64,000 bases of DNA, from positions 32,001 to 96,000 of the IMG/VR virus record IMGVR_UViG_3300014039_000012; one strand, written 5' to 3'. Source of the stretch: a virus. Its lineage: Duplodnaviria; Caudoviricetes. Both the position numbers and the translations under genes were made by a program. Of the stretch, positions 9,501 through 51,915 are shown in pieces (position 1 is the stretch's first letter; the number at the start of each line of letters is the position of its first letter). The notes beneath the pieces are model-generated. The model had not been told where the DNA came from. It worked only from the letters and a program-made list of their open reading frames with translations, and ran no database searches.

Positions 9501-10931
9501 TTTGTCAATCTTGCTAACGATATTGACAGAATTAAGATTAAAAATGGTTCTTATTTAAAAGTGGTTGATGAAAGTGGTATTTTATCCAACATTTGGCAAA
9601 ATTCAAATGAGTTCCATAATACTTCAATCTGGAAAAAGGCAGATCAAATTCCGTCCGGAGACAGAATTAATGTAGCTAACTTTAAATATGCAGAAATAAA
9701 AAATAAAGATGGAAGCTATTCAAACTCTTATCTTAATGTTTCTGGGCCATATAACTCTTATGATTCCGAAGAATCTCTTAAAAACCCGATAAACCCGAGG
9801 CAGCAGTTATTTAATATTAACACAAAAGACAGAGATGTTTTTCGATGCAATAAAACAAAAGATAATCCAAATGGCGTTGCTTTTAACATTAATCAGCCAG
9901 ATAAATTAATTTGGCTTGATTATACTCCAACTGAAAATCAAAAATCTGTTGTTATTGATGCGGACGAAAATGGCGCACTAACACAATCGATGACTGTTAT
10001 GGAAAATACGCTTTTATATTGGCCAAGCGAAGATAAAGAAGAAAAAACAAAATGGAAAGATGGAATTTATATCGAAAGCGGTCTTGAAAAAACATTGATT
10101 GGACAGATTTTTGTTAACGATGAAGTGGTTAAATCGGAATATCTTGATGCCGTAACTCCGGTTAATTATAGTAAGTCTGGACTGACGCAACAAATTCAAG
10201 TTTCTCAAAATATTAAAGAACGTAAAGTAATTACCGATTATGAATTTACATTTAGAATTTTTGTTAACACTAATAATTTTAGCGTCGATCAGTTACGTAG
10301 TAGATGTTATGTTAAAGATATTTCAACTCCCGTTCAAACATATAATATCGTTGAGAATTTAACAAATGTGACTGCGAATACAGGTAATCCAAAAGTTATT
10401 AAAGAAAATCAAACCGTAACTCTTAAGTACGCGGTAGATAATGAATATCAATTCCCGTCATCTGTAACCGTAGAAAATTGTACAATTGTTAGTTGGAGTT
10501 ATAATTCCAATATAGGAACTCTTATTATTAAAGATCCGACAGGCGATGTTAATGTTACGATTGCTGGAAATGTCGTTGTTTATAATATCGTAGAGCGCCT
10601 GACGAATGTAATAAAAGTAGGGACGCATCCAACAACCATTGCAACAAATCAAACAATTGCTCTTGTTTATGCTGCGGCAGCAGGATATAATTTACCAGAC
10701 GTAGTTAGAATAACCGGTGCTACGAACGACTGGAAACGGCCAACCGGAACTTTGACGTTAACGAATCCAACAGGAACAGTGATGATTGAGATTGCCGGGA
10801 CATTGCCTAAGCTTGATACGCCTACTGGAGTAAGTATTACCGGCGACACATTGACTTTTAACGAGGTGGAGAATGCTGAGCAGTACGAGGTGTTTGCTGG
10901 CGATGCTTCGTTGGGGATATATATAGTGTAG
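6555..10931 (+). CDS. Large multi-domain tail/baseplate structural protein (Ig/Fn3-like modules)
   Basis: SD GGAGG; 1458 aa; two YNIVE(N/R)LTNV Ig-like repeats and a terminal half-Fn3 module; ends in TAG. Confidence 0.7.
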   Translation: MAIFKPTDCSPFNGTFDISENSADLPIIFECKVDTSNTIVTGYSIEIYDSNNELVFPSENREIGPVISNVTYLSDLKSYVINNFSSSIPNMRNINSGLNGTYLEIPFYVSSTDSTAGSTVSRNQMSSGLVEGQTYTWKITLYQEVKKDGSFPPREEKYYDMTVASGTVIGSTEKRIQTALIDSDDRVVDNLVLVDKFIQPVQIQGLSNYHEDPVKWTQGGPEEFPFVAARSLITGYDSTYGYIYPSTSADNAFVDGQITADAASGFQIYKNGNNPSNLGATDMVEFIYDAYSFRGTMTWKTSAAKPEQSHWEQVYITEGKPSDVYYPFYDSNYGSYPLTGGERIIFNDIQNSKVEFDGSYYGSPYNGIFYPSFFSKEALNNNVIFAGTYTFKQKPSVTSFTGEQDFSFLTTNNRTGAILECNKVKITSTTMWYVEKSNNNFVAYSLNSGWYNNGYQTITVESDQEVSSDFFAWFSQNVNTIPYQVTVIWNRTTDASNWGTLSNKIVYCRRDSKNYEINTNTQVGEINKTPFKFVEEEPVKIFNVAEQVSETQVAVGIGNNRYVFYINRKISVLSSIVLEDGVDITKDCSFEAKGGAVLYTPSAVQSANPVATISYIPYDKKDYTGVIFYNQKALPDVSGYLYIRPSININKNMIFKELTTTGSFTWFNINSFNKDYNYIKYKLGDGNLKENSTFNPTPDKTRYQIKSFYKDSDYNPFSIYKDPTIVSTISGNVIESGGFENNIITRNFTVTSTYDQNNYIQWKSYQWFLYDSAKRTILEKTDERYDGEITATFYGLDPQKYYILSLVLQTNTGKIIEIDYVIYTDFTETAEQKDLVEAEFDCDTLAMKANLKLVNTVLAPDADEYLSGSTALTKDTAYYYDQDNFYKKDGEVIASIDSGTGVLKITGQNALNYSKSFSDYAIDSSTRTGSIQTSSDEIVIEGAFTFSEDYNGNIFSISRDDNTNATVEISIPQAIQNIDSEGFVNLANDIDRIKIKNGSYLKVVDESGILSNIWQNSNEFHNTSIWKKADQIPSGDRINVANFKYAEIKNKDGSYSNSYLNVSGPYNSYDSEESLKNPINPRQQLFNINTKDRDVFRCNKTKDNPNGVAFNINQPDKLIWLDYTPTENQKSVVIDADENGALTQSMTVMENTLLYWPSEDKEEKTKWKDGIYIESGLEKTLIGQIFVNDEVVKSEYLDAVTPVNYSKSGLTQQIQVSQNIKERKVITDYEFTFRIFVNTNNFSVDQLRSRCYVKDISTPVQTYNIVENLTNVTANTGNPKVIKENQTVTLKYAVDNEYQFPSSVTVENCTIVSWSYNSNIGTLIIKDPTGDVNVTIAGNVVVYNIVERLTNVIKVGTHPTTIATNQTIALVYAAAAGYNLPDVVRITGATNDWKRPTGTLTLTNPTGTVMIEIAGTLPKLDTPTGVSITGDTLTFNEVENAEQYEVFAGDASLGIYIV

Positions 10932-11587: not shown

Positions 11588-12622
11588 ATGGGGAAACGCT
11601 CAACGGTATACCATGAACTGGTCACTCCAGAAAAGTGGGACAAAGTTAATAAAAAAAATAAAAATCTAATCAACGAATTTACGGATTATTTGCGTTCGGC
11701 AAACAAATCTCCTGCGACAATCAAACAATATGAAGCACAATTACGTACTTTTTTCGTGTTTGTGTTGGAGAGATGCGAAAATAAATTTTTTGTTGATCTA
11801 AAAAAGAGAGAATTTGTTAAATATTTTGGATATTTGACAAATGAATTGGAGGTTTCTCCGAACAGAATTTGTTCAATGAGAGCCGTCCTTTCAAGTTTAT
11901 CTAATTTTATTGAAAGAATTTTGGATGAAGATTATCCGCAGTTCCGCAATCTTGTAAAAGTTTTGGAACCAGTGGATAAAGCTTTTGTTCGCGAGCGTCC
12001 TGCGCTAACAATGGATCAAATTAAAGAATGTTTGGAAAAATTGGAAGCGGATAAGAAATATCAAGTCGCTTGCTGTCTTGCGGTTCTTGCGGCAAGCGGA
12101 ATGCGCAAAAGCGAAGTAATTCAAATGAAAATGGAATATTTCGAAAAAGATAGACTAATTTATAATGGACTTGCCTATGAAACAGATAAGATTCGTACAA
12201 AGGGTCGTGGAAAAGCCGGGAAAGTTGTAACGAGAATTGTGTTTCGTAATTTGGTTGATTTAGACCATTATATTGATTTGTGGCGCAAAAAGCGCGAAGA
12301 ACTTGGGATCAAAGATGAATGGATGTTTGTTGTTTATCACGATGGTTCGTATGAGCAAGCAACCCAATCGACAATTAATTCTTTTGCAAGAACAATTGGA
12401 AAATATCTTGGAGAAGACTTTTTCGTCCATAATGTGAGACATACAACTTCGACGGCGTTGGAACTTGCTGGATACCCGATTGATGTTGTGCAGACAATTT
12501 TCCGTTGGGCAGATCCAAAAATGGTTAAATATTATTCAAATATTAGCGATACACAGTCATTGGAAAACTTTTTTGCTAATATGAACAAAGAAGAAAAAGA
12601 AGAAAGTGAGGAAAATAAATAA
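11588..12622 (+). CDS. Tyrosine recombinase (XerC/D-like)
   Basis: N-terminal SPATIKQY core-binding motif; catalytic GMRKSE, HNVRH, FRWAD (W at the second His position) and VKYY. Confidence 0.9.
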   Translation: MGKRSTVYHELVTPEKWDKVNKKNKNLINEFTDYLRSANKSPATIKQYEAQLRTFFVFVLERCENKFFVDLKKREFVKYFGYLTNELEVSPNRICSMRAVLSSLSNFIERILDEDYPQFRNLVKVLEPVDKAFVRERPALTMDQIKECLEKLEADKKYQVACCLAVLAASGMRKSEVIQMKMEYFEKDRLIYNGLAYETDKIRTKGRGKAGKVVTRIVFRNLVDLDHYIDLWRKKREELGIKDEWMFVVYHDGSYEQATQSTINSFARTIGKYLGEDFFVHNVRHTTSTALELAGYPIDVVQTIFRWADPKMVKYYSNISDTQSLENFFANMNKEEKEESEENK

Positions 12623-13887
12623 TGCCAACATATACTACCCCTCCCGTTTGGTACAACTCAGCCGGGGTTAAAAGCGAAAGTTTGTCCGCAATAGAATATC
12701 CTTGTAATGCAATTTCAAATACCGCATTTGGAAAGAATAGTTTCGCAGGAATAATTGGCTCAAATATAGATTCTGCTGTTGCGGTTGGAAATCATGCACA
12801 AGCAACCGCAAATAGAGCAATCGCAATCGGTGGAGAAGATGCAGATAACGAAAGACTTACGCAAGCAACTGGAACGGGTTCTATTGCAATCGGATCGGGA
12901 GCGCAAGTAAATGAGATTGGCGGAATCGCAATAGGAAGCAGCTCTTTTGCAAGATCTAATTCTGTAACGATTGGAAATGGTATTTCAAATGTAGCAGAAA
13001 ATGCGGTTTCTATTGGCTATAACTCAGCGGTAACAACATCGAGTTCAATTGCAATTGGGTCTGCGCAAGCAAATGGACTCGTTTCAATTGCTATTGGCGC
13101 AACTGCGCAAGCTGACGGCAATTTTTCTGTCGCAATTGGAGATGGAGCAACTGCAAATGTCGCCAATAGCATCGCCATTGGTAATGCTGCATTTGCAAAT
13201 AGTGCTAATATGATCCAGCTCGGAGGCAATGATAGTACATATACGTTAAATATTGGAAATAGGACATTGGTTGATGCGAATGGAGTAATCGCGGCAAACT
13301 CATATAAGGTTGGGGAAAATTATGTTATCGGCAACGATCGCAGCATTAGTGGAACGAGCGTGACCGCAACCGGAAGCGTAAAAGGAGACAATATTATATC
13401 AAATGTTTTCAAGCAAGATTTGTTCGGTAACTCTTATATTTATCATAGTTACTTAAATTTAAAGAATTTTAAAAATCGCGCGTCCGATTCTTCTATAACG
13501 CTTGCCGATTTTACAAAAAAAGTTAGTAGAACTGGTTCTGCAAGATTTGGTTTTTATAATTTTTCAGAAATTACATCAGTTGGAGCAGATTGTTTATATT
13601 TGGTAAAAATTGTTGCTTCTGGCGGCACAGGAGATCAAACTTGGGAAAACGAATATTCTTCTTTGTTATCAACAATAGACGCAAAAGGAAAATGTGTTTT
13701 CGATATATATGCGGATAACACATCTGTTGAGAGCCAATATAAATGGGGAACTGTTGGTGTTACTTTCTGGTATACTTCTGAATTTGATAGTGCTTCAAGA
13801 GAATGTTTTTTGACATATAGCGGAACAACTGTTGAAATTACAATAACATGTAAAATATATTTGATTGGTAATAATGGACAATCGTAA
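12622..13887 (+). CDS. Fibre/adhesin with YadA-like head repeats
   Basis: Many (S/A)IAIG repeats; paralogue of 57033-57875 (shared TPPVWY start). Confidence 0.75.
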   Translation: MPTYTTPPVWYNSAGVKSESLSAIEYPCNAISNTAFGKNSFAGIIGSNIDSAVAVGNHAQATANRAIAIGGEDADNERLTQATGTGSIAIGSGAQVNEIGGIAIGSSSFARSNSVTIGNGISNVAENAVSIGYNSAVTTSSSIAIGSAQANGLVSIAIGATAQADGNFSVAIGDGATANVANSIAIGNAAFANSANMIQLGGNDSTYTLNIGNRTLVDANGVIAANSYKVGENYVIGNDRSISGTSVTATGSVKGDNIISNVFKQDLFGNSYIYHSYLNLKNFKNRASDSSITLADFTKKVSRTGSARFGFYNFSEITSVGADCLYLVKIVASGGTGDQTWENEYSSLLSTIDAKGKCVFDIYADNTSVESQYKWGTVGVTFWYTSEFDSASRECFLTYSGTTVEITITCKIYLIGNNGQS

Positions 13888-15176: not shown

Positions 15177-18100
15177 ATGTATTCCGATAAAGAATCTTTA
15201 AGGAAAATATTTTCAGATGCGGGATTTATAGATGTTGGTACCGGGCAATATCTAAGCGGACGTGGCGTGGGAGATGTTGGGCAGGCAAAGGCTGTAGTAT
15301 CTGCTCAGCAAAATAATTTAATAAATAGTATATACACTCTTGGCGCTCAGCTTTCAAGCGCAGGCATCAATTCTCAAACAAGCATTAAAAATAATAATTT
15401 AATTTTTGAATATTGGGATTCTAAAGATCCGTCATCAAAAGAGACAATTATACAGCCATTGCCAGATATGACTACGGTCGGTAAAAATATTGAAAATTTT
15501 GTTGGCGTTTTTGTGAGAAATAAATTACAATTCGTTGCCAACAGCGCTGCAAATATTGCCGTTGCAAATCAGAGAATGGCGACAGAATGGGGAAAACAAC
15601 AACTAAAAACCAATAAAGTTGCGGCCGTTAAACAGATTTTTCAATGGGCAAGAAAAGATGTTCTGGAACTATCGAGCACTGCTGGTTCAGAAGCAGTTTC
15701 TGATGCGTTTAAGGAAACAACGGCGGGAAGTGCGGCGGTTAATGCACAAAATGCTCAAAGGGTAAAATTAAAGCCTTATTTTCAAGGCGTAGCTTTTGCC
15801 AGCGGAATTGATTTTGAGAAATTTAATAACGAACTATATGAAATGTTTGCGTTGGTAACTATGGCACGAGATTTTCAAACCGCGAGAAAGGTACTTGATA
15901 GTGATCCAACTTTCAAAAAATTAAGAGAAAATAAACAATCATACGAAAAAGCTTTAAGATTATTTAATTCTGCGAGAAATCAAAACTTTGGACTCGGAAT
16001 AGCGGCGACTTCTGAAACATCTCAAGAAGGTTTGACTTTTTCTTTTGAGGGAGCAGAAACCACTATAGATCCTTTGGGAGGAGCTCGCCCTGCGTATAAG
16101 AGGGGTCAGCATAGGCCAGCTCGAATGAAAATGGTTTCTGACGTAAAATTATTTACAAGCCCAATTGCATCTAAGCACGGAGAGGGGCTTGGCTTAAAAT
16201 ATGGTCAAAGGGCCGCAGTTGCCAGAGGCGAGGCAATTCCGTTTGATGCTTTACTGAAAGGAATGGAAGTTAAAGAATCTGATCTTAAAGGAACGGGGAT
16301 GTCTATTCACGGCGGTCAGATGGAAATAACACCAGAAGCTGCGGAAATGTTTGGAACCGCGATGCAAGAATTTAATATCATTCTGACGCCAGATGATATA
16401 CAAGATTTTATTGAAAAAGAGCAAAAAAAGAAAAGAAACAAAAATAAGACAAAAGAACAGCTTATGGAGACTCTTATTAGTAAGACAATTGGAGAAACCG
16501 GACTGTCAGATGTCGATTTTCAAAAACTTGTAGATGAAGAAACGGGCGCAATAACCCTTGTTGGCAGCGGACGTAAGGCGTATAAAGATTTTCAGCGCGT
16601 TACAAGCGCGTCAGGCATTCGTGCAGCAACACATAAGTCAACAAAAGAAGCGTTTTCTCAATTAACTTCTCAATTAATGGATGTGGAAGACGAGGAAATT
16701 AGTTTTATCGTTGGACAAAGTGAGCTAAACAGCAGAAACTATCAAGAGGTGCTTGAACAAGATATAAGAACTGTTTTTGCTGAAGCGTATCAAAACAAAT
16801 TGGGTGCCTCTCAAAAAGGTCTTAAAGAACTAAAAGAAATCATCGAAAGAGATGCCGCAACCGAAGGGGATTTCAAGGAAATTGCTGGCATTTTTAAGGA
16901 TGCGTTTGAGTTCGATGAAGATAGTGGCCTTGTTTATGTGACTAACGATTGGCGTCAAAAAATGCAAGAATCTTCTGACCAAGATATTTTTGGTAGAGCG
17001 TTATTATATATAGACAATCTCATTCACGGTGAGCAAGAAAAGGATAAACATTTTTATAGTGAAACGGTTGATGAAGCTGGTCGTTTAATTGTAAAGAGAA
17101 ACGACCAAGTTAGAAGATATTTTTACGACGCAGTCAGCGCAACCGATCAATATAGATATGGAGAGTGGTCGCAGAGAGGCGCTGTTTCGCTATCTTCTGG
17201 CGCAGATTCATTAAGAAGATTGGCCGGAACAGTAAGTTCGAATGTTCGTGTTGGTGGTAGAAAATTGACACCGGAAGAAATAGTGGAAGCTGCGAATTCT
17301 ATAGCTGGAAGACTTGAGCCAACAAAAGAACAGCAAGAAATGCTTGATAGGGCGCAGAAGGCAGAGGAGGAAGCTCGTAATCTTACTTTATCGACAATGC
17401 GTTCTGATTTTACAAAATTTGGCGATGACGTAGTCGTAATTGGTCGCGGTGCAGATGCGGGAATAAATATTTCTGACATAAAACCAGCGGCGGAATACAA
17501 ATACGGAAAACCAACTAACGAAGAAGAAATGCTCGTTGGGCGCATTGAAGAGTATAAAAAGAAATATATTCAAGAACAAGTTGCAAGAGGCGTAGCAGAG
17601 GAAGAAGCAAAAAAAATGGCGGATGCCTTAAAATTTGCAATAGATTTGGAGCAAGGGGTTTCTTCTTCTGTAAAATATGACGACAAAATTTATGGTGTCG
17701 GGGGAAAATATTTTGTATTAAGAGAGGGGTTTGATGCCCAAACAGGTGGGGCGAAAGAGGCTCAGTCTCTTATCAATGCTATAAATGAAGGAAAAACGGA
17801 TGCTATTTCGGGTAGATTTGCAAGTGCGCTGAAAGCAAGTTATGAAGATGTCCACACAAAAAGAGGTCAGACGTATAAAAGAATTTGGAAACAAAAGCAA
17901 CCAGAAAGTATGTACGGGAGCGTCGGTACGTTTGGTGCGGCCGATGTTTTAACAGATGAAGAATATGAAAAGGCAGACAATGTTGCAAAATTAAAGAGTG
18001 ATATTGCGTCTGCCGGTGCTGCCATTTCTGCAAAAACAGCAAAAAAAATGCTGAAGGCAACTGACATCAAAGAACTCAGGGAAATGTACTCGACGTTTTC

Positions 18101-21100
18101 CGGAATTGAAGATGTTGAAGGTTTAAAAAAAGGAGATTTAATCGAAAATATAATTAAATATTTGACGATTGACTCTGATGAATTTAAGCAAGCTGCTTCA
18201 TCTGGCAGATTGAAAGAAGGTATTCGCAGCGTTGCTGGTCGTTTACCATTTATGAGCGGACTTGATATGAATGCAATTAATAAATTGTTCATAGCATCTG
18301 ATTTGGAAGACGACGGGGTCAGACTTTCTCTCGGTGGCGCGCTGAAAATGAATGCTGACTACGACGGAGATAAAGTTGCAATTGCCAGAATAAAAGATTT
18401 GAACGAACAAGAAAGAGCACTCTATGATGCTATGGCAGAAAGAACATCAAAAGTTCTTCGAACAATGGCGCTTATTGAAAAAGCCAACCAAGAAAAAGCA
18501 GACAAAGAGTCTGAGACGGTGCTTGGGAGTGAGCAATCTGATATTTTAAAAAATAAAAATATTGAATTTGCGGCGTCTATTGCGTCTCGTTTCGGTAAAT
18601 CGTCTACGGGCATTTTCTCGAACATTGCGAGTGAATTAAGGGCTTGGGTAAAAGAAGAAGGTCTTGATGAAATTTCTCTGCTTGAAAGTGGTGGCGGTGA
18701 TGCCGATCAAATAAAAACCGCAATTCAAGCTTCTATAATGAGATCGTTCTTTGAAGCTATGGAGCAGGATGTTATTAGTTCAAAAAAAACTATTAACAGG
18801 ATGGCAAAAATTCAAAGACAAAAAGATACTGGAGTAGATTCAGAGGACTTTAAATCTGAATCGGAAATGGAAGAGTTTTATCTTAAAAGCGTCTTTTCAG
18901 TAAGAGATTTGGTTAATAGATTTTTTGATAGAGAAAATGGACTAACTTTTAAAGAGTTGGTTGACACTCTTCAAGAAATGGGCGTGGTTGATGGATCTGA
19001 CGAAAATGCATTTTTAAAAGGGCGAGTTCCGCAACAATTAATGGCTTCTGCGGAAGGAATGGTGGCCGGAAGATCTGATGCTGATGATATCCTAAAAAGT
19101 GTTTTTGGAGAAAATTTCAAAAGTTTTGTAGAGTTGTCTAAATCAGACAAAGAAATAGAATATGGTAAATTGTCCAAAAATGTTGTTATGGGTGCCATTG
19201 AAAATATGGCTGGCTCTCTTGGTGTCGATGTAGAGGATTTATTAAGTTCGGCAACTAGACATAAATATACACCAGAAAAACAATCTATAACCGAAGAGAA
19301 TATGGCGTATTGGTTGTCTGGAAAACAATTGATTAATAAAAGTATTTTAGATCCTACATTTTATGATCAAATTGTTAAAAATGCTAATGAAGCAGAAGAT
19401 GCCGTTGATAGTGAACGAGTGGCAGAAGAAAAGAAAATTAAGGTTGCTAAAGATGAGGCAAAAGCAATTCTTGAAGCAAGTAGAGCCTATGGGACTCTTT
19501 CTGGGCAATTGGCAGATGCAAAAGACGCTTATGATAAATTCGGAACCGGGAAAAGTTATGGCGCAACTGCTCACGATATTGCAAGTTTGTTAAATCCATC
19601 CAGTTATACTGTTGTTGAAGGAAAATCCATTAGTAGAGACGCGCTGGCAGAACAAATTGTTTCGGCTACTTCTGCAAAATCTGATTCGGAACTTTATAAA
19701 ATAAAGAAAGAACTGGGAGACTCAAATTATATTCAAGCGCTTAAAGAGACGGCAGAGGCGTTAGATAAAGGAGCCGAGGAAAGACTCGCTGCTCAATCTG
19801 GTTTAACCGGAACAGATTTATTAAAAGAAAGAAACAGATTAGTTAGAGAAGCAAAGCAGAACGCAGAAGCTCGCCTTGGATTTAAAGGTACAATTAAAGA
19901 GTTTAGAGACAAGAGAGAATCCTTTATCCACACCCAAGAAGGCACTTACATTCACGCATTAGCTCAACAAATCGACACTGCGGGGAAAGATAACGTAATT
20001 AATGCAGAGGTAGAAAAGCAGCGAGCTCTTCTCGGTGCTCAAATGAGATCGCTTGGTTTTGCAGAATCTGAGATTACTAAAAGGGTTGAAAAGGCAAGTA
20101 CAAGCGCAAAAGCATTATATGAAAAAACGAGATCATTCGGCAATGTAGATTTTACAGAACAAAAGCTGACTTCTACACAAAGTGGTTCGCAAGGTTTTGT
20201 TCACGGCGCTGCCGACGCAATTGCGATTGATGAAAACGGCAATATTACGATTATTGACTGGAAGACAGGACAGAAATCTATTACAGACGAAAACAAGGCA
20301 CAGGTTGCGGTTTATCAATCGATACTTGAAGAATACAGAGGAAAGCTTAAAGATATTTACGAGAAGAGCTTCGATGGCAAATTTGCTTTAAGAAATCAAA
20401 GTGGCGATGATTCTTATGTCGAAGACATAATTAATCAGTTTTATAAAGAGAATATTGTTCATGAAGGATTGAAAGCAAGGTTTGGAGAAGAAGGGGCGAA
20501 GGATTTATTACGAAAGATTCTCTTGACCGGTGGCGGCAGAGAGGACGCGGAAGGGAACAGGATATTTGACCAAGCAATAAGGGGCGCTATCGTACTTTCA
20601 AATTCTCAAGGCATTAGTAGTTGGTCCGGCGCTGGTGGCATTCCTCCTGTTCTTGCAGAAAAACTTCTTTATAATCCAGAAAATTTAAGCCGTGATGAAA
20701 AAGCGATTATTTACGCTGGCGGTACGTATATTCCTGCTGGTTCTTCTACTGGTAAAAAAGGAAAAGGAAAATCGTCCGGAGGAGGATCTTCTGCGGGCGG
20801 AAGTAGCGAAAGAGAAAATTCCTTAAAGTCTGAATATATTAAGCTTCTTAAAGAACAGTACGATCTTATGATAAAGATCAATATTCTCGAACACAAGAGA
20901 GATGAAATGCTTGGCCGTGGAGAAGATGTAACGGCTGTAGAAAAGGATATAGACGTCTTAAAATCGGCTCTCGAGCAACAGAAAGAAATTCTTTCTGATA
21001 AACGTTTTAAAAAAACAGCAAAAGACAAAGGCGTTTTAGATTATATTTCTACGCAAGAGCATCGGGTTTCTTATCAAAAATCTCTTCTTGGTGTTGGAGA

Positions 21101-22259
21101 TGCAGAAGATACACTGAGAGCTTTTGAAAGATACGCTACAAAGCGCATGAAGCTTGAAAGCGAGATTGAACAAGCGCAACTTAAAGCCAGCACAACAGTT
21201 GGGAATGAGAAAAAAGCTTGGGAAAATGTTGTTGCATTAAAACAACAAAGTTTGAAAGTATCCGAGGACACTTATGAGATTCTGAAGAAGCAAGCAATTG
21301 GTGTTGATAAAGATAGAGCCCAAGAGATTATTGATGCTGTTGATCAGCAAAAAGCAATACTGTCTGCCCAAAAGCTCGCTGGCAATCGGGGCAATCGTAC
21401 AATCTTCGATGTTATTAAATCCGACATTCAACGTGCGACGATGCGTATCACCGATTTTGGTCTTGCGGCAAAAGTTCTCAATACTGCTCGCAAAGAAATT
21501 CAGCAAGTTTATCAGAATATTTTAAAGCTTGACGAAGCAATGACGAATCTTCGCATTGTTACCGGTTCCAACACCGAGCAAGCGAAGAGTATGATGAATA
21601 CCTACAACGATCTTGCAATGCAGCTCGGTACAACTACGCAAGCGGTTGCGTCTTCTGCGGCGGAATGGTTGAGACAGGGTTATTCTGTTTCTGAAACCAA
21701 CGAGCTGATTAAGTCTTCGACGTATTTGTCTCGTCTTGGCTTTATGGATATGAATCAGTCTGTTACGGCGCTGACCTCTGTTATGAAAGGTTTCCGTATT
21801 GAGGCAACCGACTCGATGGATATTGTCGATAAGCTGACGCAGCTTGATGCGAAATACGCAACCACGGCTGGCGATATCGCTACGGCTCTTTCGAGAACTT
21901 CTGCAGTTGCTCGCGAAGCAGGGCTCGATCTTGACCAGACAGCGGCGGCATTGACTACGATGATTGACGTATCACAGCAGGATGCAAGCAGCGTTGGTAA
22001 CGCTTTCAGAACGATTCTTGCGCGATACGGAAACGTTAAAGCTGGTGCGTTTACTTCTTTGGTTGGTGACTCTGATGATATTGATGACACAAATGGTTCT
22101 ATAAACGATACCGAAAAGGTGCTTGGAGCGATTGGAATTAAAATTCGTTCGTCTTCAAGTGATATGCGTGATTTTGACGACGTTATGGATGAACTTGCTG
22201 ATAAGTGGGTAACTCTTACAGACGTCGAAAAGAATGCCGTTTCAACGGCACTCGCAGGT
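15177..22259 (+). CDS. Exon 1 of giant tape-measure polyprotein: two-barrel RNA polymerase-like region, PD-(D/E)xK nuclease and phage tape-measure core domain
   Basis: NADYDGD at 18351-18371; GRLP at 18237; R-x7-R at 16596-16622; GTYIH...AAD...IIDWKTG...QVAVY nuclease motifs; LDEAMTNLRIVTG...GNAFRTILAR...DELADKW...STALAG tape-measure motifs. Confidence 0.85.
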
Positions 22260-22655
22260 GAACTAGCGCCTGTGTGTGGGCTAAAATACACACAAAGAAC
22301 ACATTTAATTGCAGGTAAAATCTTAGAGCCTTTTACCACAATAATCAAGAAATTAGATTATGACGGTTTGAAAACAAAAGGATTGGTAGATCTGCAGCGA
22401 AGCTCCTAAATGAATATTTCACAAGGAGAACGTTCAACGACCATCCCCCGATGAGGGGCATATTAATTATGTTACAGGAGTACGGCGCAAATAAAGGCGT
22501 GGGTGAAAATCCCTTAAATGGAAATGGTGTGGCTCGGTATGAAAATACAGGGTTAAGAAATGGTCTATTCTTACGCGAAAGCGTAAGCTGAAATTTGATA
22601 TAATTAAATTATATTAAATTTCGGGTCGGAGTTATGAACCGACCGAATATTAAAA
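22260..22655 (+). ncRNA. Group I intron (ORF-less, 396 nt) in tape-measure gene
   Basis: P1 gcaggU/Gccugu with U.G pair; P10 cuagc/guuag; core elements GTTCAACGACCAT and AAGAAATGGTC (P7). Removal restores ALAG|VRQRNIF in frame. Confidence 0.88.
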
Positions 22656-25600
22656 GTTAGACAGCGCAATATTTTCGGGATCTATATGGAAAATTACGAC
22701 ACATATAAGCAAGCAATTTCCGAAGCCGAAAAAGCAGAAGGTACAGCTGCTCGTAAAATGGAAGCATATAATGAGAGTATTGCTTATAGTATTAATCAGC
22801 TTTCTGCGGCTTGGGAAGGATTTACTCAAAAACTTGAAGCAAGCGGAGCGGTAAAACTTTTCTTCCAATTATTGACCGTAAGTGTAAAAAAATTTGGAAC
22901 AATTCTTTCTCAGGTTTTATCTACCGTCGTCTCTCTTCGTTCTTTCAAGTTGACAACCGACTTAAAACGTCTTGCCGACTTCTTTGGATTTAGTTCTTCT
23001 GAAGGAAAGGGTCGTTTGAGGACTAAGTGGGACAAAACAAAAGCTTGGTTTAGTCCGAACCGTATGACGAAACAAGCGGAACAAGAAAAAGAAAAGTATG
23101 AACAGCAAAGAGCGGACACGAGCGAAAAGAAGTCTCGAAACGAGGTTGTTAATTCTAACAACAAAGTCGTTGATGCATTAAATAGAAATGCCGACGCTCT
23201 TGATAGAAATAGCAATGCTCAAAACGCCAAACAAGCGGCGCAATCTGCGTCTCCGATGTCGGCGTCAAATACTCCTTCCGTTAAATCTTGGGCTACCGAA
23301 TATGGTACTTTAAATGGCAAATATGTCTATAAGACTGTTGATGGAAAATGGAAATACGGAAATAGGCACAATATAGACGATATAAGTATCTCTAATATAA
23401 AATCAATCGCTCCTCCTTCTGGCTCGTCGGCCACTTCAGCTATGAACCAAGTAAACGAACAGGAAGACAGAGTCCCGTCACGTTTTTGGTTGGCTGGACT
23501 ATCTGGGTCAACCATTGTTTCTGGCGGTGGACTTTTTGGAATTCGCGCTTCTGCTGCGAAAAAAGTTCTTTCTATAGACAAGCAGATAGAAGATTTAAAA
23601 AATGGACCCGCTGCATTTGGAAACGAGGACTTAACAAGAGACAGAATTACCGAACTTAAAAATCAAAGAAATAATATTTATAAAAAATATGGATTTTCTG
23701 AAGATGAAGACCTAAATCAAATTATTCAAGATAGACAATTGCGTACTCAAGAACTCAAGGCTAACTGGAAACAGGGCGCAATTCGAGGGGGCGGAACTGG
23801 CTTGGCGGCGGGTATTATTTCCGGAATGTCTGCAGAAGGTGATGTTCAAGATAAATTAGTAGCTGGCGCTACAACCGCTATTACAACCGGATTACTCAGC
23901 GCAATTCCTGGAGTTGGAACAATTCTTGGTCCAATTTTAGGCCCTATTTTGGGTGGATTCTTCGGTAAAGAGATTAATAAACTTCTTAAAGCAGACGAAG
24001 TCGCTCGAAAAAAACGTGTCGAAGATGCTAAAAAGCAGCTTGAAACAATTAAGGGAATCGGAAATTCAGTTACCGGACTAATTGATCTTAACAAAAAAGA
24101 TCAAGCGTTGTGGGATTCTGACGATTGGAAGCAGTTTAATGAGCAAGTTGAAACAATCAATGAGGCTCTTGAAAAGTCAAAACTTGGAGATAGGCTTATT
24201 GATCTGGGAGATAGCACACAAACTCTTTCTGAGTATTTCGAAGAAGCGGCAAGAACTGGAAATAAAGATATGCTTGCCCGCGTCGAAGCAGAAAAGATTC
24301 GTTTTGAGGCGGAAAAGACATACGCAGCAGGAGAACAAGATCGTTATACTCTTCAAAAAGAGATTAACGAGAATCAAAAGAAACTCGCAAATCTTGACGA
24401 CGACGAGATATCGAAAAAGAAAGAACTAACCGCAGCAATTAAGGCTGCAAAAGCAGAAATAGAAGACTACTCCGAAACCCTGAAGAATGGTTATATGGAA
24501 GCATCATTCTACTCTTCTGGTGTTGGCACAATGGAGTCTTATGACATTGGAAACGCAACGCTCGATAGAGTAATTATGCAAATTGCTCGCGAATGGGCAA
24601 AAGACAGCCCGGATATTTTTGCTGGAAATCAATTGACGAGTGATGCCCGTTCTGATATTATTTCGTATCTGCGCGAACAGTCCGGTTATTCTTCGCTGTT
24701 TAAAAATGATACGAAGAATGTTAGAGATATGTTGAATGCGGAAAAGGCTGTTGAGAATCTTAGAACTACTCTCGGCGTGTCTCAAAAACAGCTAAAAGAA
24801 TTTGCTAACAGCAAAGATCTTTCTGAAATTGCTGATAAATTCGGCGCAACTGGGGATGCTCTCTACAAAATTATCGACCAAGTCAACCTTGTTGATGAAG
24901 ATGGAATTTCAACTATCGCTCACGCAATGAATATGACGGTCGAGCAGTTTAGGGAGGCGAACTCCGAAGGCGCATTTGACTGGCTGACTACAGATGTTGC
25001 AATTGGCGGTCTTGATAAACTCAATGAGAAACTCGCGACGTTTAACGAGCTTTTGCTTGCAGCGTCTGAAAATTCTCTATTCTCACAGGAAAACATCAAC
25101 AAGATCGTTAGCCAATATCCAACGCTGCTTAAAAAAATTGACGAAGAAACTGGAAAAATTTCTGTTTCTATGGACAACGTTCAAGAAAATTTGGTCGATA
25201 TTCTTGCCGGAGGAGAAAGTTTACAAAAATTATATACTGGATTTTTTACAAGAAAGATCGCCACGGATGAAGAGACGTGGGAAGTCTTTATCTCCTCCAT
25301 TAGAGAAGATATTGAAAAGGATTCTAATCTTGACGATATAAGGGACGAGATATTTGAACAGACAGATTATTCTGGTTTCTATAAAATTTATGAAGAGAAT
25401 AAAGATGTACTCGAATCTTATAATCAAAGTTTTATTGAATATGCGAAGAGTCTATTTTCAGCAGATGTTTTTGATGCCAGACAAGAAATCCTAACCAAAT
25501 ATGCAACAAATACTCTTGAAACAGAGATTTCTAATCTTGAATCAATTCGAGACTCTCTTGATGAAGTTAACAAACAACGCGAGAAGGAAATTGAATTAAT

Positions 25601-27200
25601 CAAAGCAAAAGAAGCTCTTGAAAATGCATCAAAAGAAAAGAAACGCGTTTATCGTGCCGGTGTAGGATTCGTTTACACAACAGACCAGGAAGCAGTTAAA
25701 TCCGCGCAGGATAAAGTTGACGAACTTGAAAGACAACGAGACAAGGATAATATTCAATACCAAATCGATTCGCTGCAACAACAGAAAGAAATTCTTGAAA
25801 ACATTAAAGACAACGAACAGTTAAAGGCGTTGCAAAAAGAAGCGGAAGAAATACTTGGAGCACTTGGTGTTAATGGAAGCATTGTTACCGCTATTTTAAG
25901 TGAGAGCAAAGAAGAATTTGAAGCAAACATAAAAAAAAATCTTGGTGGAAGTATTGGCGAGGGCGCAGCAGATGTGAATGCGGAGATAGTTTCTGAAACA
26001 GAAAATGAATATTATCGTGCCAAAGCTGAATTAGAAGCATTCCAGCAAGGTAAGGTTATTCTTGGATATAATAAGAAAAAAGATAAGAATGGTAATGAAG
26101 TAGATGATTATACTAGCCCAATAGTAAGGAATATGACAGATAAAGAACTTGAAGCATATGGTGGAATGACACCGGGGCAAGTTTCTCAAAATAAAAATTC
26201 TCCATTTTATTCCGAAGCTAAAAAGGAAGAGGGAAGGCTTATTGGAAATGTGGAAAGTGCTAAAAATAGGTGGGCGGCAGTGGATCCAACAGTAAAAGAT
26301 AAAATTGAAAATCCAACAACTTTATTTGAAAAACAAGATTATAAAACAAGCTTTTTAATGACAAATCCACAAGATAATTATGATAATAAAACGGAGAATG
26401 AGTATGGTTTATTCTCGGTTTCTAATGAACAGATAATAGATATGTCTAATAGAATTGATGGAGATATTAAAAAATTTAGATACGCCTTGCAAAATGCAGA
26501 TGGTACAATCGGGAGTTGGGAAAGTTTTAGTTCTAATGTTGCAAAAGATGGAAGTGTTGAAAAACAAATTTCTGATTTAAAAGGTCCTGTTGTTATTGCA
26601 AATTTAGACGATCGTCCAAATACTGTTTTCTATAAGGGAGCAGATGGTTTGTATTATAAAATGTATGGATATGACAATACAATGAATCAATTTGATGAAG
26701 GCAAGGCCACTGGAAATTCTAAAAAACTTTGGGCTTGGAAATTTATAAATGGAGAGCCTTATATTTTAAATGTTCCATCTGGAGTTTCTACAGAAGCACA
26801 TCAAAGTAATACTAATAAAGGCCGAGAATTGATTGGTTATCCAGAAGCGACTTTTGCTTCCGGTACGCTTTCAGCACCCGGCGGTCGTTCTCTAATCAAC
26901 GAAAACGGTCTTGAATCTATCATAACTCCTTCTGGCACAATCACTTCTCTTCCTGCTAAATCCGGAATCATTCCTGCCGATCTTACTCGCAACTTGTGGG
27001 CTCTCGGCGAGGTTGCTCCTAACCTTATTGCTCGTCTTGGTGGAAATAGTCTTCAGACCAATAATTCTAATTCTTCTACCGACAATTCGATTAATATTCA
27101 GAATCTTGATGCTACGTTTAATACGCAAAGCGACTTCGATGGACATCGCTTCTTGACAGATCTTCGTAATCAAGTTATTTTGACTGCGAATAATCACTAA
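22656..27200 (+). CDS. Exon 2 of tape-measure polyprotein
   Basis: VRQRNIFGIYMENY continues the tape-measure motif; long coiled coil; Gly-rich hydrophobic segment; C-terminal FASGT..INENGLE..IIPADLT typical of tape-measure ends. Confidence 0.85.
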   Translation, partial: VRQRNIFGIYMENYDTYKQAISEAEKAEGTAARKMEAYNESIAYSINQLSAAWEGFTQKLEASGAVKLFFQLLTVSVKKFGTILSQVLSTVVSLRSFKLTTDLKRLADFFGFSSSEGKGRLRTKWDKTKAWFSPNRMTKQAEQEKEKYEQQRADTSEKKSRNEVVNSNNKVVDALNRNADALDRNSNAQNAKQAAQSASPMSASNTPSVKSWATEYGTLNGKYVYKTVDGKWKYGNRHNIDDISISNIKSIAPPSGSSATSAMNQVNEQEDRVPSRFWLAGLSGSTIVSGGGLFGIRASAAKKVLSIDKQIEDLKNGPAAFGNEDLTRDRITELKNQRNNIYKKYGFSEDEDLNQIIQDRQLRTQELKANWKQGAIRGGGTGLAAGIISGMSAEGDVQDKLVAGATTAITTGLLSAIPGVGTILGPILGPILGGFFGKEINKLLKADEVARKKRVEDAKKQLETIKGIGNSVTGLIDLNKKDQALWDSDDWKQFNEQVETINEALEKSKLGDRLIDLGDSTQTLSEYFEEAARTGNKDMLARVEAEKIRFEAEKTYAAGEQDRYTLQKEINENQKKLANLDDDEISKKKELTAAIKAAKAEIEDYSETLKNGYMEASFYSSGVGTMESYDIGNATLDRVIMQIAREWAKDSPDIFAGNQLTSDARSDIISYLREQSGYSSLFKNDTKNVRDMLNAEKAVENLRTTLGVSQKQLKEFANSKDLSEIADKFGATGDALYKIIDQVNLVDEDGISTIAHAMNMTVEQFREANSEGAFDWLTTDVAIGGLDKLNEKLATFNELLLAASENSLFSQENINKIVSQYPTLLKKIDEETGKISVSMDNVQENLVDILAGGESLQKLYTGFFTRKIATDEETWEVFISSIREDIEKDSNLDDIRDEIFEQTDYSGFYKIYEENKDVLESYNQSFIEYAKSLFSADVFDARQEILTKYATNTLETEISNLESIRDSLDEVNKQREKEIELIKAKEALENASKEKKRVYRAGVGFVYTTDQEAVKSAQDKVDELERQRDKDNIQYQIDSLQQQKEILENIKDNEQLKALQKEAEEILGALGVNGSIVTAILSESKEEFEANIKKNLGGSIGEGAADVNAEIVSETENEYYRAKAELEAFQQGKVILGYNKKKDKNGNEVDDYTSPIVRNMTDKELEAYGGMTPGQVSQNKNSPFYSEAKKEEGRLIGNVESAKNRWAAVDPTVKDKIENPTTLFEKQDYKTSFLMTNPQDNYDNKTENEYGLFSVSNEQIIDMSNRIDGDIKKFRYALQNADGTIGSWESFSSNVAKDGSVEKQISDLKGPVVIANLDDRPNTVFYKGADGLYYKMYGYDNTMNQFDEGKATGNSKKLWAWKFINGEPYILNVPSGVSTEAHQSNTNKGRELIGYPEATFASGTLSAPGGRSLINENGLESIITPSGTITSLPAKSGIIPADLTRNLWALGEVAPNLIARLGGNSLQTNNSNSSTDNSINIQNLDATFNTQSDFDGHRFLTDLRNQVILTANNH

Positions 27201-32534: not shown

Positions 32535-33794
32535 ATGCCACAAATTTCTAATAAAATCAAAATGGGATCCGGCGAAAATTACGAATATGTAATTGACGGG
32601 AAAGATGCCGCTGTCGCAGATCTTGAAAAATATTTAAAGATTTCAGAAATTAAAAAAATCATAGGAAGAAAAACAATTTACCCTCGTTTTAGGATTTATA
32701 TTTTAAATCCCGATGAAACAATTTGTTATCAATTGCCAAATGAAGACATTTTGTCTGGCGGTTCGTATAGCGAAAACTACCAAAATGGTTCTCGTCGAAC
32801 ATTGTCTTTTTCATTGAATAATCAGGAAGGGAAATATACTCCTTCAATTAATAATTTGTGGGTAGATACAAAGGTTTTGCTCGATATCGGATTGGAAGTG
32901 CCAGACGAGGGACTAGTTATTTGGTTTCACAAAGGCGTATTTGTTATTACGTCGGCGAATCCGTCTAAATCAACAGAGACAAAAACGGTGTCAATTAGTT
33001 GTGCAGACAAATTTGAGATTTTGAATGGGCGACGCGGTACGGTCGGAACAACTGTTGAAGTTCCACCGGGGATGGTTATTAAAGATGTAATTCAGGATGT
33101 TTTATGGTACGACAGTGGAACAGGAGATGTTCTTGATCCGATTCCATTTTTCTATCATCCTGTGTTTGAGGGAAAGGTAACGCCCGTTACATTAACGCTT
33201 TCGGCTGGTTCAAATTATGGAAATTTAATTACGCAAATTGCCGATGTTTTATCAGCAGAAGTGTTTTATGATTCATATGGACATTTGAATTTTGTTCCAA
33301 CGGTCGACGTTATTTCGGATGGAGATAAACCGAATCTTTATGATTATTCAATTGAAAATCTACAAAATGAGAATTTTTCAATTGATCTAAATTCTTTTGT
33401 TAACTGCGTTTATGTCGTTGGAGCAAATGTTAATGGACATACTTGTACGGCGGTTAAAAAGAACGAAGATCCAACTTCTCCAATTTCGGTCGGAAGGATC
33501 GGGCTGCGTGTTGCTGATGTAATTAACGATTCTAATATTACAACCGACCAGTTGGCGGAAGAACGAGCAGATTATGAGTTGCGGAAAAAGATTATAGCGG
33601 AAAGCACATTGAGTAGTTCTGTTATGTTTAATCCGCTTTTAAGTGTTAATAATATTGTAACATATACTGACGAGGAAGATTTTAATATGAGACGCGAAAG
33701 ATTTTTGATTCAGAGTATTTCATTTAATTTGGGATATGATGGAATTATGTCGTTAAGCGTTTCTAATATAAACAATCTTCCGTTTGTATATTAA
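32535..33794 (+). CDS. Baseplate hub/tail-tip-like protein
   Basis: RRTLSFSL..., GVFVI, VSISCADKF, FYDSYGHLNF and LAEERADYEL pattern typical of hub proteins. Confidence 0.6.
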   Translation: MPQISNKIKMGSGENYEYVIDGKDAAVADLEKYLKISEIKKIIGRKTIYPRFRIYILNPDETICYQLPNEDILSGGSYSENYQNGSRRTLSFSLNNQEGKYTPSINNLWVDTKVLLDIGLEVPDEGLVIWFHKGVFVITSANPSKSTETKTVSISCADKFEILNGRRGTVGTTVEVPPGMVIKDVIQDVLWYDSGTGDVLDPIPFFYHPVFEGKVTPVTLTLSAGSNYGNLITQIADVLSAEVFYDSYGHLNFVPTVDVISDGDKPNLYDYSIENLQNENFSIDLNSFVNCVYVVGANVNGHTCTAVKKNEDPTSPISVGRIGLRVADVINDSNITTDQLAEERADYELRKKIIAESTLSSSVMFNPLLSVNNIVTYTDEEDFNMRRERFLIQSISFNLGYDGIMSLSVSNINNLPFVY

Positions 33795-40031: not shown

Positions 40032-40181
40032 ATGAGGAAATAAATATAGCAAAAAAAATTATCTACACCGAAAAATGTTAAAATATCTAGTGATGGAACA
40101 TTGAGTTTTGACGCTGTTCCAAACGCTACAAGTTATGATATTTTGGTAAATAATACGGTTATAGGAAATAGTGGAGGAAAT

Positions 40182-51899: not shown

Positions 51900-51915
51900 A
51901 TTGGCGGTGGTTGAT

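Follow-up and report, generated by a model that had tools for sequence, protein, structure and literature searches.

A RecB-family nuclease domain predicted within the giant tape-measure protein of an uncultured phage

The giant tape-measure protein of an uncultured 169-kb phage contains a genuine RecB-family PD-(D/E)xK nuclease that is probably active. We examined this protein in a window of 64,000 nucleotides, the whole stretch of phage DNA analyzed here. A first-pass annotation made from the same DNA had proposed a RecB/Cas4-type PD-(D/E)xK nuclease embedded between RNA-polymerase-like and tape-measure parts. The family profile, the predicted fold, and the conservation of key residues agree on the nuclease. 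Its position is also borne out, with the region carrying the NADYDGD signature before the domain and the PF10145 core after it.

Layout of the tape-measure gene

The gene is read from two exons on the plus strand, and its main features are listed below.

15177..22259, + strand: exon 1 of the giant tape-measure gene, 2361 codons (from the open reading frame list, the translation, and the junction compared with intron-less homologs)
18138..18419, + strand: RNA-polymerase beta'-like core, aa 988-1081 (phrog_2987 and family profile)
18351..18371, + strand: NADYDGD metal-binding signature, aa 1059-1065 (window translation)
19599..20822, + strand: predicted nuclease cassette, aa ~1475-1882, comprising a helical N-terminal sub-domain, the PD-(D/E)xK core, and a Gly/Ser-rich tether
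19932..20336, + strand: predicted PD-(D/E)xK catalytic core, aa 1586-1720 (Pfam PDDEXK_1, PHROG matches, and conservation)
20772..20807, + strand: Gly/Ser linker SSGGGSSAGGSS, aa 1866-1877, connecting the nuclease to the coiled-coil portion of the tape measure
21606..22259, + strand: tape-measure core, Pfam PhageMin_Tail PF10145, aa 2144-2361, E 9.3e-33, its end interrupted by the intron
22260..22655, + strand: group I intron, 396 nt, ORF-less (Rfam RF00028)
22656..27200, + strand: exon 2, 1514 codons plus stop (codons 22656-27197), translated in frame with exon 1

Exon 1 encodes an N-terminal region of unassigned fold and, after it, the RNA-polymerase-like region and the nuclease cassette; a coiled-coil stretch then leads into the initial portion of the tape-measure core. 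Exon 2 supplies the remaining tape measure, including a Gly-rich hydrophobic stretch and a conserved C-terminal end, and similarity runs on through it in homologs of 37xx-38xx aa. The two exons together encode a mature chain of 3875 aa, so the length of about 3875 aa given in the first-pass annotation is exact once the 396-nt intron is removed. The intron matches Rfam RF00028 at 22228-22587 with 55.9 bits (cut-off 50). Its boundaries can be placed in two ways that differ by one base (22260-22655 or 22261-22656), and the mRNA is identical either way. At the exon junction, ...STALAG is followed directly by VRQRNIFGIYMENY, and intron-less homologs read straight through with the same sequence. We also considered recoding of the in-frame stop codon at 22407-22409. 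This was rejected in favor of a group I intron on the basis of the Rfam match and the junction in intron-less homologs.

The core profile, the tail-gene surroundings, and the very long helical chain identify the protein as a tape measure. Five PHROG tape-measure families (4211, 14917, 28, 991, and 167) match it. Large Bacillus, Lactococcus, and Enterococcus siphophages have annotated tape measures that the core also matches, mostly at 22-30% identity and, among the matches listed, at 36.5% at most. The nearest recognized structural genes encode tail proteins, upstream at 1192-3189 and downstream at 32535-33794, with tail-fiber genes from 36635 onward. Most of the immediate gene neighbors have no family match, and an integrase-like gene lies at 11588-12622. 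A Pfam search found no peptidase domain in the tape-measure protein.

The N-terminal part of the tape measure includes a region that is RNA-polymerase-like in sequence and carries a conserved DxDxD metal-binding loop. This region matches phrog_2987, annotated as "RNA polymerase beta subunit", with E 1.6e-4. When compared with known structures, the family profile found a piece of the phiKZ RNA polymerase beta' subunit (7ogp_A, E 1.4e-6), followed by cellular beta' chains (E 0.17-0.94). The strict signature, DxDGD or DxDAD, is present in 45/54 homologs, and DxDxD is present in all of the full-length ones. The variants are DYDSD in P0054 and DFDKD, the latter as checked in three members (P0031, P0033, and P0036) of the group P0031 to P0036. 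P0040 and P0041 are fragments without the polymerase-signature region. AlphaFold modeled aa 560-1460 poorly (pLDDT 49.5), and searching with this model in VIA-align gave only generic helical hairpins (Z <=7.5).

Motifs and predicted fold of the nuclease domain

The five sequence motifs on which the first-pass annotation based its assignment, the residues D1680, D1694, and K1696, and the Gly/Ser linker are all found in the window translation at the places it gave for them. The motifs are as follows.

aa 1588-1597 (19938..19967), + strand: EGTYIHALAQ
aa 1659-1664, + strand: FTEQKL
aa 1675-1682, + strand: VHGAADAI, including D1680
aa 1692-1698, + strand: IIDWKTG, including D1694 and K1696
aa 1708-1714, + strand: AQVAVYQ

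The linker lies about 50 nt past position 20720, where that annotation ended its feature. Key residues of the core are H1593 (GTYIH), E1661, D1680 (GAAD), D1694-x-K1696 (IIDWKTG), and Q1709...Y1713 (QVAVY). The domain matches every element of the motif set of the RecB family: G-x-x-x-H, E, G-x-x-D, (D/E)-x-K-T, and Q-x-x-x-Y.

Profile searches gave a consistent family assignment. The HMM search that had been suggested as a check returned Pfam PDDEXK_1 (PF12705) over aa 1586-1720 with E 1.1e-9. The score was 39.1 bits against a gathering cut-off of 22, or 40.6 bits for the domain alone. Three PHROG exonuclease families (phrog_69, phrog_3953, and phrog_1218) match over the same stretch. An NCBIfam search returned AddB and Cas4, both below threshold. 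Neighbors of the domain in the protein atlas are viral PF12705 clusters (score 0.91).

A restriction-endonuclease-like fold is predicted by the AlphaFold model and by structural searches with it; the first-pass annotation had named the lack of such a prediction as grounds for refutation. The model of aa 1462-1848 has a pLDDT of 84.2 and a pTM of 0.78, and its core has the predicted order alpha-beta-beta-beta-alpha-beta. E1661, D1680, and D1694/K1696 are placed on three successive strands and Q1709/Y1713 on the next helix (model residues 243-270). We compared the model with 48,161 chains using VIA-align, and ranks 1-19 were all occupied by this nuclease clade (Z 11.4 to 6.6). The first rank was the nuclease-like part of DinG (9kqh; Z 11.4, rmsd 3.7, 134 aligned). 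Other matches were AdnA (9np6; Z 9.8, 197 aligned), Cas4 (7mi4; Z 9.2), MGME1 (Z 8.8), EXO5 (Z 8.3), Dna2 (Z 7.8), AddB (Z 7.6), and RecE and lambda exonuclease (Z 7.0). Rank 20 was a PD-(D/E)xK repair endonuclease (2vld), and unrelated helical matches began at rank 21 (Z <=6.5). The best Foldseek matches came from the same families, including EXO5 (E 9.9e-3) and Cas4 SSO0001 (probability 1.00), with E-values of 0.01 or weaker. A three-copy complex prediction of aa 1543-1848, based on the idea of a trimer ring like that of lambda exonuclease, was uninformative either way (score 0.00, mark 0.42).

The predicted fold is shared with the RecB-family/PDDEXK_1 enzymes, a group that includes AdnA, AddB, and RecB nuclease domains, MGME1, EXO5, Dna2, RecE, and lambda exonuclease (Z 7.0-9.8). 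Sequence identity to solved members of this family is 9-17%. Unlike these enzymes, the window domain is neither fused to a helicase nor stand-alone, but embedded in a virion structural protein. The same predicted fold is found in Cas4 (SSO0001, 4ic1; Cas4-Cas1-Cas2, 7mi4/8d3l), with Z of 9.2 (for 7mi4), 7.6, and 7.5.

The description of the domain as Cas4-like holds for its predicted RecB/Cas4-type fold and its motifs but not for a Cas4-type Fe-S cluster. Cas4 is defined by four cluster-binding cysteines, and AddB, Dna2, and EXO5 also carry an Fe-S cluster. The window domain differs from all of these in having no cysteines. The entire mature protein of 3875 aa contains 0 cysteines, compared with ~67 expected from the other ORFs (P ~4e-30), so a cluster of this type is not possible. 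The domain is further distinguished from Cas4 sensu stricto (TIGR00372/PF01930) by the absence of a CRISPR context and by a TIGR00372 match that falls far below the cut-off of 65 (E 6.9e-4, 19.5 bits). Full-length relatives contain no cysteines or almost none. The absence of cysteine, itself a new observation, fits a chain that has to travel unfolded or outside the cytoplasm.

We searched for close relatives of the domain in several collections. An exhaustive HMMER search of 1.84 billion representatives returned 5 proteins at E <=1e-3, each of them a giant tape measure or a piece of one, and found no stand-alone close relative of the nuclease domain. In a tblastn search of 50,697 GenBank phage records, the sole match was a weak one (E 0.03), to a stand-alone PD-(D/E)XK nuclease that Psychrobacillus phage Perkons encodes in its replication module. 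The whole exon-1 protein (2410 aa), compared with 50,697 phage records, found matches only through the tape-measure core. A pattern scan of IMG/VR identified one related locus, L008, at 78% identity. A single-sequence search of solved structures gave nothing significant for the domain, with AdnAB nuclease parts at E 0.28-0.8. The top entry of that search, adenylosuccinate lyase (E 0.0064), was judged spurious. The same phage genome also encodes a stand-alone phrog_69 exonuclease (genome 111880-112917), a Sak4-like annealing protein, and an exonuclease V-like helicase. We rejected the idea that the domain is a recent copy of the phage's own phrog_69 exonuclease (BLASTP E 1.2).

Conservation and exchange of the nuclease cassette

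The protein belongs to a family that occurs in uncultured phages and has at least 54 members. Every full-length relative has the DxDxD polymerase signature, the nuclease, and the tape-measure core, with the polymerase signature and the nuclease adjacent on one chain. We examined residue conservation in a set of 54 sequences, consisting of the window and 53/54 homologs; P0042 ends before the domain and was left out. The first-pass annotation had made its assignment depend on conservation of the catalytic residues in homologs, and these residues are retained: D1680, D/E1694, and K1696 are each present in 54/54. Q1709 is present in 54/54, Y1713 in 53/54, E1661 in 52/54, and H1593 in 48/53, with S or Q at the H1593 position in the other 5/53 sequences. 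One relative, P0053, has lost both E1661 and Y1713. The catalytic motifs persist even in a cassette with only 24% identity.

No other part of the gene is as exchangeable as the nuclease cassette. The edges of the cassette are marked by BLAST similarity to relatives with other cassettes, which ends at aa 1474 and resumes at aa 1883. Polymerase types A and B are each found with both the N1' and N2 nuclease cassettes, and P0005 joins a further N-terminal type to the window's own nuclease cassette. Judged from these sequence combinations, the nuclease cassette is reassorted independently of the RNA-polymerase-like module, which is a new observation. The tape-measure core is 92-100% identical in 41/47 core-bearing relatives. 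In relatives, the linker is replaced by other low-complexity or charged linkers. A variable low-complexity linker of this kind fits a flexible tether and a cleavage site equally well.

Proposed roles at genome entry

The nearest precedent is gp96 of Thermus phage P23-45, in which a tape measure and a two-barrel RNA polymerase of the virion form one fusion protein (Chaban et al., Nat Commun 2024, PMC10770324). Proteins of this type are also described in P74-26, G20c, and TSP4 (PMC10770324). Both gp96 and the window protein are giant tape measures with an N-terminal DxDGD signature (DFDGD in gp96, NADYDGD here) and with enzymatic cargo upstream of the ruler part, and in both cases the cargo is proposed to be delivered along with the tape measure. 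Beyond the polymerase, only metallopeptidase and membrane domains are reported for gp96 in the main text, where the word "nuclease" occurs 0 times (PMC10770324). The window protein differs in having a RecB-type nuclease cassette after the polymerase-like part, a group I intron, and no peptidase domain that we could find. Tape measures with a lytic transglycosylase or peptidase, such as those of the SPbeta type, follow the same principle of a ruler that carries an entry enzyme. The target of their enzymes is the cell wall, outside the cytoplasm, whereas a nucleic-acid enzyme must reach DNA. Among the literature titles and abstracts listed, we found none describing a nuclease inside a tape measure; the supplements of the P23-45 paper could name further domains.

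By analogy with gp96, we infer that the nuclease is brought into the cell with the phage DNA. The best explanation overall, toward which we lean with modest confidence, is that the domain is an end-dependent DNase, tethered to the tape measure and active as the genome enters. The enzymatic N-terminal half would be built into the virion with the tape measure, as is the case for the P23-45 virion RNA polymerase. It would leave the tail at ejection, and the flexible linker would keep it tethered at the DNA entry site. There it would act as a metal-dependent DNase requiring a free DNA end, a requirement suggested by the nearest structural relatives, which are all end-processing (AdnA, AddB, RecB, Cas4, MGME1, EXO5, Dna2, RecE, and lambda exonuclease). 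The free end at time zero would be the terminus of the incoming phage genome, so trimming or resecting that end would be the most likely job. Trimming would precede any phage gene expression and could free single strands of a terminal repeat to anneal, or pre-empt host AddAB/RecBCD. The lumen of the tail tube measures ~4 nm. A folded nuclease of ~30 kDa should not fit this space, so the domain would be unfolded or in the neck or head. The phage's own exonuclease, Sak4-like protein, and exonuclease V-like helicase mean that end resection need not come ready-made.

Alternatively, the tethered nuclease could be a delivered weapon or counter-defense that attacks host nucleic acids at entry rather than phage ends. 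Its targets could be chromosome breaks, plasmids, the DNA or RNA of defense systems, or DNA ends made by host nucleases. An exchangeable module beside an invariant core is typical of conflict-driven selection, and the cassette and tape-measure core form such a pair. The frequent exchange of cassettes suggests selection from a variable host factor, and an offensive or counter-defense role would fit this no less well than housekeeping end processing would. That the phage already encodes separate recombination enzymes also speaks for this reading. We nevertheless consider it unlikely. All of its closest structural relatives depend on free DNA ends, mostly of single strands, so an intact circular chromosome would be a poor substrate. 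No immunity or inhibitor gene was recognized adjoining the tape-measure gene, and a tethered enzyme present as a single copy or trimer would be weak for bulk degradation.

Three further explanations appear quite improbable to us. In the first, the domain would bind and perhaps cap the genome terminus in the virion and at entry. As a pilot or end protector, it would pull the DNA along after the tape measure, with cleavage absent or incidental. Work on lambda and T5 places the N-terminal half of a tape measure at the head-proximal end of the tail, beside the DNA end, and domains of the RecB family grip such ends. The full catalytic set (D, D/E-x-K, and Q...Y) is strictly retained in 53-54/54 sequences across 24-100% identity, which favors catalysis over mere binding.

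We give similarly little credence to a nuclease that assists the RNA-polymerase-like module beside it. Such a nuclease might uncover a single-stranded template or promoter where the genome end enters, generate a 3' end or primer, or act in processing the earliest transcripts. The adjacency of the polymerase signature and the nuclease in every full-length member is consistent with such a partnership, but the free reassortment of polymerase and nuclease types argues against tight co-adaptation. In addition, P23-45 gp96 works as a polymerase, and its main text names no nuclease (PMC10770324). A combined two-step scheme, which may be called an "entry processor", is just as speculative. Here, the tethered nuclease would resect one strand of the leading genome end as it leaves the tape-measure channel, the resulting single-stranded template or promoter would serve the neighboring polymerase for its first transcripts, and the swappable nuclease cassettes would be variants selected for escaping host factors that block this step.

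Finally, the enzymatic N-terminal half might not be delivered at all, being removed at tail assembly or active only in the producing cell. Some phage tape measures are proteolytically processed, such as gpH of lambda; the low-complexity linker could be a cleavage site, and a folded domain does not fit the tail lumen. This too seems a poor prospect, given that the P23-45 precedent has its polymerase in the virion (PMC10770324). Cysteine is missing from the whole window protein, enzymatic half included, which would be hard to explain for a purely cytoplasmic enzyme.

Tape-measure proteins have long been regarded as passive rulers. Work on P23-45 in 2024 showed one tape measure that carries a virion RNA polymerase (PMC10770324). 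If the tethered, end-dependent DNase acts as we propose, long-tailed phages would be able to import a ready-made DNA-processing enzyme before any gene expression. This would bear on how linear phage genomes survive or use the end-processing enzymes of their hosts, AddAB and RecBCD among them, on the organization of pre-early events, and on possible targets of host defense. The free exchange of nuclease cassettes behind a near-invariant ruler core offers a natural set of variants for testing, and complete lack of cysteine provides an easily read sequence signature of chains that pass through the tail.

Gene structure and nuclease domain of the tape-measure protein

The giant tape-measure protein is encoded by two ORFs in the same frame, 15177-22409 (2410 aa) and 22686-27200 (1504 aa), with a group I intron between them (Rfam RF00028, 22228-22587; 55.9 bits, cut-off 50). 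In homologues that lack the intron, the sequence ...NAVSTALAG-VRQRNIFGIYMENYDTYKQ... is uninterrupted; the window has ...ALAG up to 22259 and VRQRN... from 22656. Removing 396 nt thus gives a protein of 3875 aa, the length estimated in the first-pass annotation. A G flanks the intron at either end, which leaves the splice point uncertain by one base.

15177-22259, + strand, exon 1
22260-22655, group I intron, 396 nt, no ORF, within the most conserved core of the tape-measure gene
22656-27200, + strand, exon 2

Searching a 5.8-billion-protein collection twice, together with an exhaustive HMMER search, yielded 54 related proteins; aside from a few truncated pieces, each of them is a giant tape measure. 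The HMMER search returned no stand-alone close relative and only 5 representatives at E <= 1e-3. The intron site is unbroken in 29 of the 54, and two carry the read-through tail of a window-type intron. Another 13 end after ...DVEKN, eight codons upstream, which at the protein level suggests a second insertion site; the remaining 10 end elsewhere or do not match the search patterns. Within the intron, 53 nt (22476-22528) match intergenic DNA of Vibrio phages JA-1, VCO139 and JSF3 at 90.7% identity.

The motifs from which the first-pass annotation had proposed a RecB/Cas4-like PD-(D/E)xK nuclease were all found at the residues it had named. Over aa 1586-1720 the protein scores 39.1 bits with Pfam PDDEXK_1 (cut-off 22, E 1.1e-9). 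PHROG exonuclease families 69, 3953 and 1218 match the same stretch, and NCBIfam gives AddB and Cas4 matches that all fall below threshold. The domain adjoins viral PF12705 clusters in a protein atlas (score 0.91). Its single match among 50,697 GenBank phage records is weak, to a stand-alone replication-module nuclease.

Conservation was scored in 54 sequences, that of the window and those of 53 homologues (P0042 stops short of the domain and was left out), fitted to a family profile, which is biased toward agreement because 15 of the aligned sequences were used to build it: D1680, D1694 (D or E), K1696 and Q1709 are conserved in 54/54, Y1713 in 53/54, E1661 in 52/54 and H1593 in 48/53 (otherwise four S and one Q). 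Free MAFFT alignments show the same conserved nuclease columns. The catalytic residues on which the earlier proposal depended are thus retained across the homologues.

We modeled aa 1462-1848 from an 18-row alignment (mean pLDDT 84.2, pTM 0.78). The model places a helical N-terminal sub-domain before strands bearing E1661, D1680 and D1694/K1696, a long helix with Q1709 and Y1713, and further strands, the predicted order being that expected for a PD-(D/E)xK core. A structure search independent of Foldseek, against 48,161 representative solved chains, placed members of the RecB/Cas4/lambda-exonuclease clade at all of ranks 1-19. Matches include the DinG nuclease-like part (9kqh, Z 11.4), AdnA (9.8 and 9.2), Cas4-Cas1-Cas2 (9.2), MGME1 (8.8), ACE1 (8.5), LHK-Exo (8.4), EXO5 (8.3), Dna2 (7.8), SSO0001 and AddB (7.6 each), the RecC/RecB complex (7.1), and RecE and lambda exonuclease (7.0 each); since Z 7-8 is common among unmatched models in this search, we place weight for the fold on the consistency of the list, the top Z of 9-11 and the sequence evidence. 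Rank 20 is the PD-(D/E)xK repair endonuclease 2vld (Z 6.5), followed by generic helical matches. Foldseek gave weak E-values (best 9.9e-3), with top matches in the same families. The restriction-endonuclease-like fold anticipated in the first-pass annotation is therefore predicted by the model and by its clade-consistent matches.

The mature 3875-aa protein (15177-27197, spliced) contains no cysteine; about 67 would be expected at the 1.7% frequency of the phage's other ORFs (P ~4e-30). The only cysteine of the 2410-aa ORF falls in intron read-through, and relatives that are intron-less or full-length likewise lack it, apart from an occasional single residue. This rules out an Fe-S cluster of the Cas4/AddB type in this domain. 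The domain is thus not Cas4 proper, and we class it within the RecB branch, as a member that lacks the cluster. Two neighboring large tail proteins, 37941-39983 and 40101-42017, contain 0 and 1 cysteine.

Polymerase-like region and cassette exchange

Upstream of the nuclease, aa 1059-1065 read NADYDGD, and full-length relatives carry NADYDGD, NADFDGD or GDYDGD, or the variants DFDKD or DYDSD. The family profile matches a phiKZ RNA polymerase beta' fragment (7ogp_A, E 1.4e-6), then many cellular beta' chains (E 0.17-0.94), and phrog_2987, "RNA polymerase beta subunit", also matches (E 1.6e-4). An invariant R-x-P lies about 39 residues ahead of the aspartate loop, a spacing that we take to recall the beta' barrel. 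The structure model of this region is poor (pLDDT 49.5), so it is from sequence that the term "RNA-polymerase-like" is supported.

Segment-wise BLAST revealed the tape-measure gene to be a patchwork. Of the 47 relatives with a tape-measure core, 41 share 92-100% identity with the window over that core, and the upstream parts fall into types.

Types of upstream segment (identity to the window)
N-terminal and polymerase-like part, type A: the window's own
N-terminal and polymerase-like part, type B: 39-40%
N-terminal and polymerase-like part, further types: 25-31% or undetectable
Nuclease cassette, type N1: the window's own, 77-100%
Nuclease cassette, type N1': 63-66%
Nuclease cassette, two further types: 31-33% and 27-32%
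Nuclease cassette, type N2: 23-24%

Sequence comparison indicates that polymerase-like types and nuclease cassettes reassort. Over aa 1-1440, homologue P0043 shares 94-96% identity with the window, whereas its cassette shows 24% identity to the window's and 92% to that of P0048; the polymerase-like parts of P0048 and P0043 are only 40% identical. P0023 joins the window's polymerase type (95%) to the cassette of P0021 (94%), which has the other polymerase type (41%). P0005 carries the window's cassette (92%) behind yet another N-terminal type (40% identical to P0037). Similarity is lost at ~aa 1474 and regained at ~aa 1883, so the exchanged unit comprises the helical sub-domain, nuclease core and linker. 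The N2 cassette falls below the Pfam reporting level and retains TAAH, PEQ, GQID, VDYK and QVLTY at aligned positions.

The phage genome

The window covers bases 32001-96000 of one contig of 169,441 bp (G+C 38.8%), a large phage genome. Family scans identified terminase, portal, head protease and many tail-fiber proteins, together with a DNA polymerase, primase, DnaB-type helicase, nucleotide-metabolism enzymes and many homing endonucleases. The scanned ORFs yielded no tail-sheath family, and large siphophages of Bacillus, Lactococcus and Enterococcus have tape-measure cores similar to this one; the phage thus probably has a long non-contractile tail and probably infects a Gram-positive host. 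Further genes were recorded as follows.

Window 3208-6138, large ORF, 976 aa, no Pfam or PHROG match
Window 6555-10931, large ORF, 1458 aa, no Pfam or PHROG match
Window 11588-12622, tyrosine recombinase (phage integrase; phrog_1 E 8.7e-32, Pfam Phage_integrase E 1.1e-15)
Window 12622-13887, 421-aa protein with YadA-head repeats (PF05658, E 1.1e-15)
Window 51901-54363 and 54569-55039, NrdD pieces, 820 aa and 156 aa (C-terminal)
Genome 97015-98211, Sak4-like annealing protein
Genome 105570-110756 (L003:10570-15753, local numbering), DNA polymerase (phrog_405), three consecutive ORFs
Genome 111880-112917 (L003:16880-17914), stand-alone PD-(D/E)xK exonuclease, replication module (phrog_69 E 8.7e-16)
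Genome 120953-123319, exonuclease V-like helicase

The two large ORFs upstream of the tape-measure gene may encode further virion or ejected proteins. The integrase is surrounded by structural genes, a short way upstream of the tape measure, and is unexpected in a 169-kb phage having its own replication machinery; the adjoining YadA-head protein brings an adhesin-type repeat into the structural region. The anaerobic ribonucleotide reductase NrdD is apparently split, its pieces ~200 nt apart, which could reflect another intron or insertion. The three polymerase ORFs, separated by gaps, align to successive parts of the phrog_405 profile. Many HNH and homing endonuclease genes occur throughout the genome, which looks heavily colonized by introns or inteins. 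BLAST found the stand-alone phrog_69 exonuclease to be unrelated to the tape-measure nuclease.

Possible roles of the nuclease

The closest precedent is gp96 of Thermus phage P23-45, in which a virion RNA polymerase is described as forming the N-terminal part of the tape-measure fusion; its proposed task is transcription of pre-early genes as DNA passes through the tape-measure pore (PMC10770324). Besides the polymerase, that paper reports only peptidase and membrane domains, and the word "nuclease" is absent from its main text (PMC10770324). Among the matches listed by full-text literature searches, no title or abstract describes a nuclease inside a tape measure. The carrier principle and the nuclease family are each known, and their combination is not yet described in print; cassette exchange and the cysteine-free chain are further additions of this analysis.

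By analogy with P23-45, the enzymatic half would be packaged and ejected, and the nuclease would stay at the entry site, tethered by its flexible linker. We lean toward a delivered, active, end-dependent DNase. Use of the nuclease for host attack or counter-defense is unlikely, though free cassette reassortment, which speaks for a module that may work alone under variable selection, lends it some support. The same reassortment argues against polymerase and nuclease working as one tightly integrated machine, which we consider quite improbable. Strict catalytic conservation makes a purely structural end-holder similarly hard to credit, and removal of the enzymatic half before packaging is very doubtful given the P23-45 precedent and the lack of cysteine along the entire chain.

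For a delivered DNase, the nearest structural relatives all act on free DNA ends, and the only obligatory free end at entry is the phage's own. Together these points favor a nuclease that would trim or resect the incoming phage genome end, which we regard, with less assurance than end-dependent activity itself, as its favored substrate.
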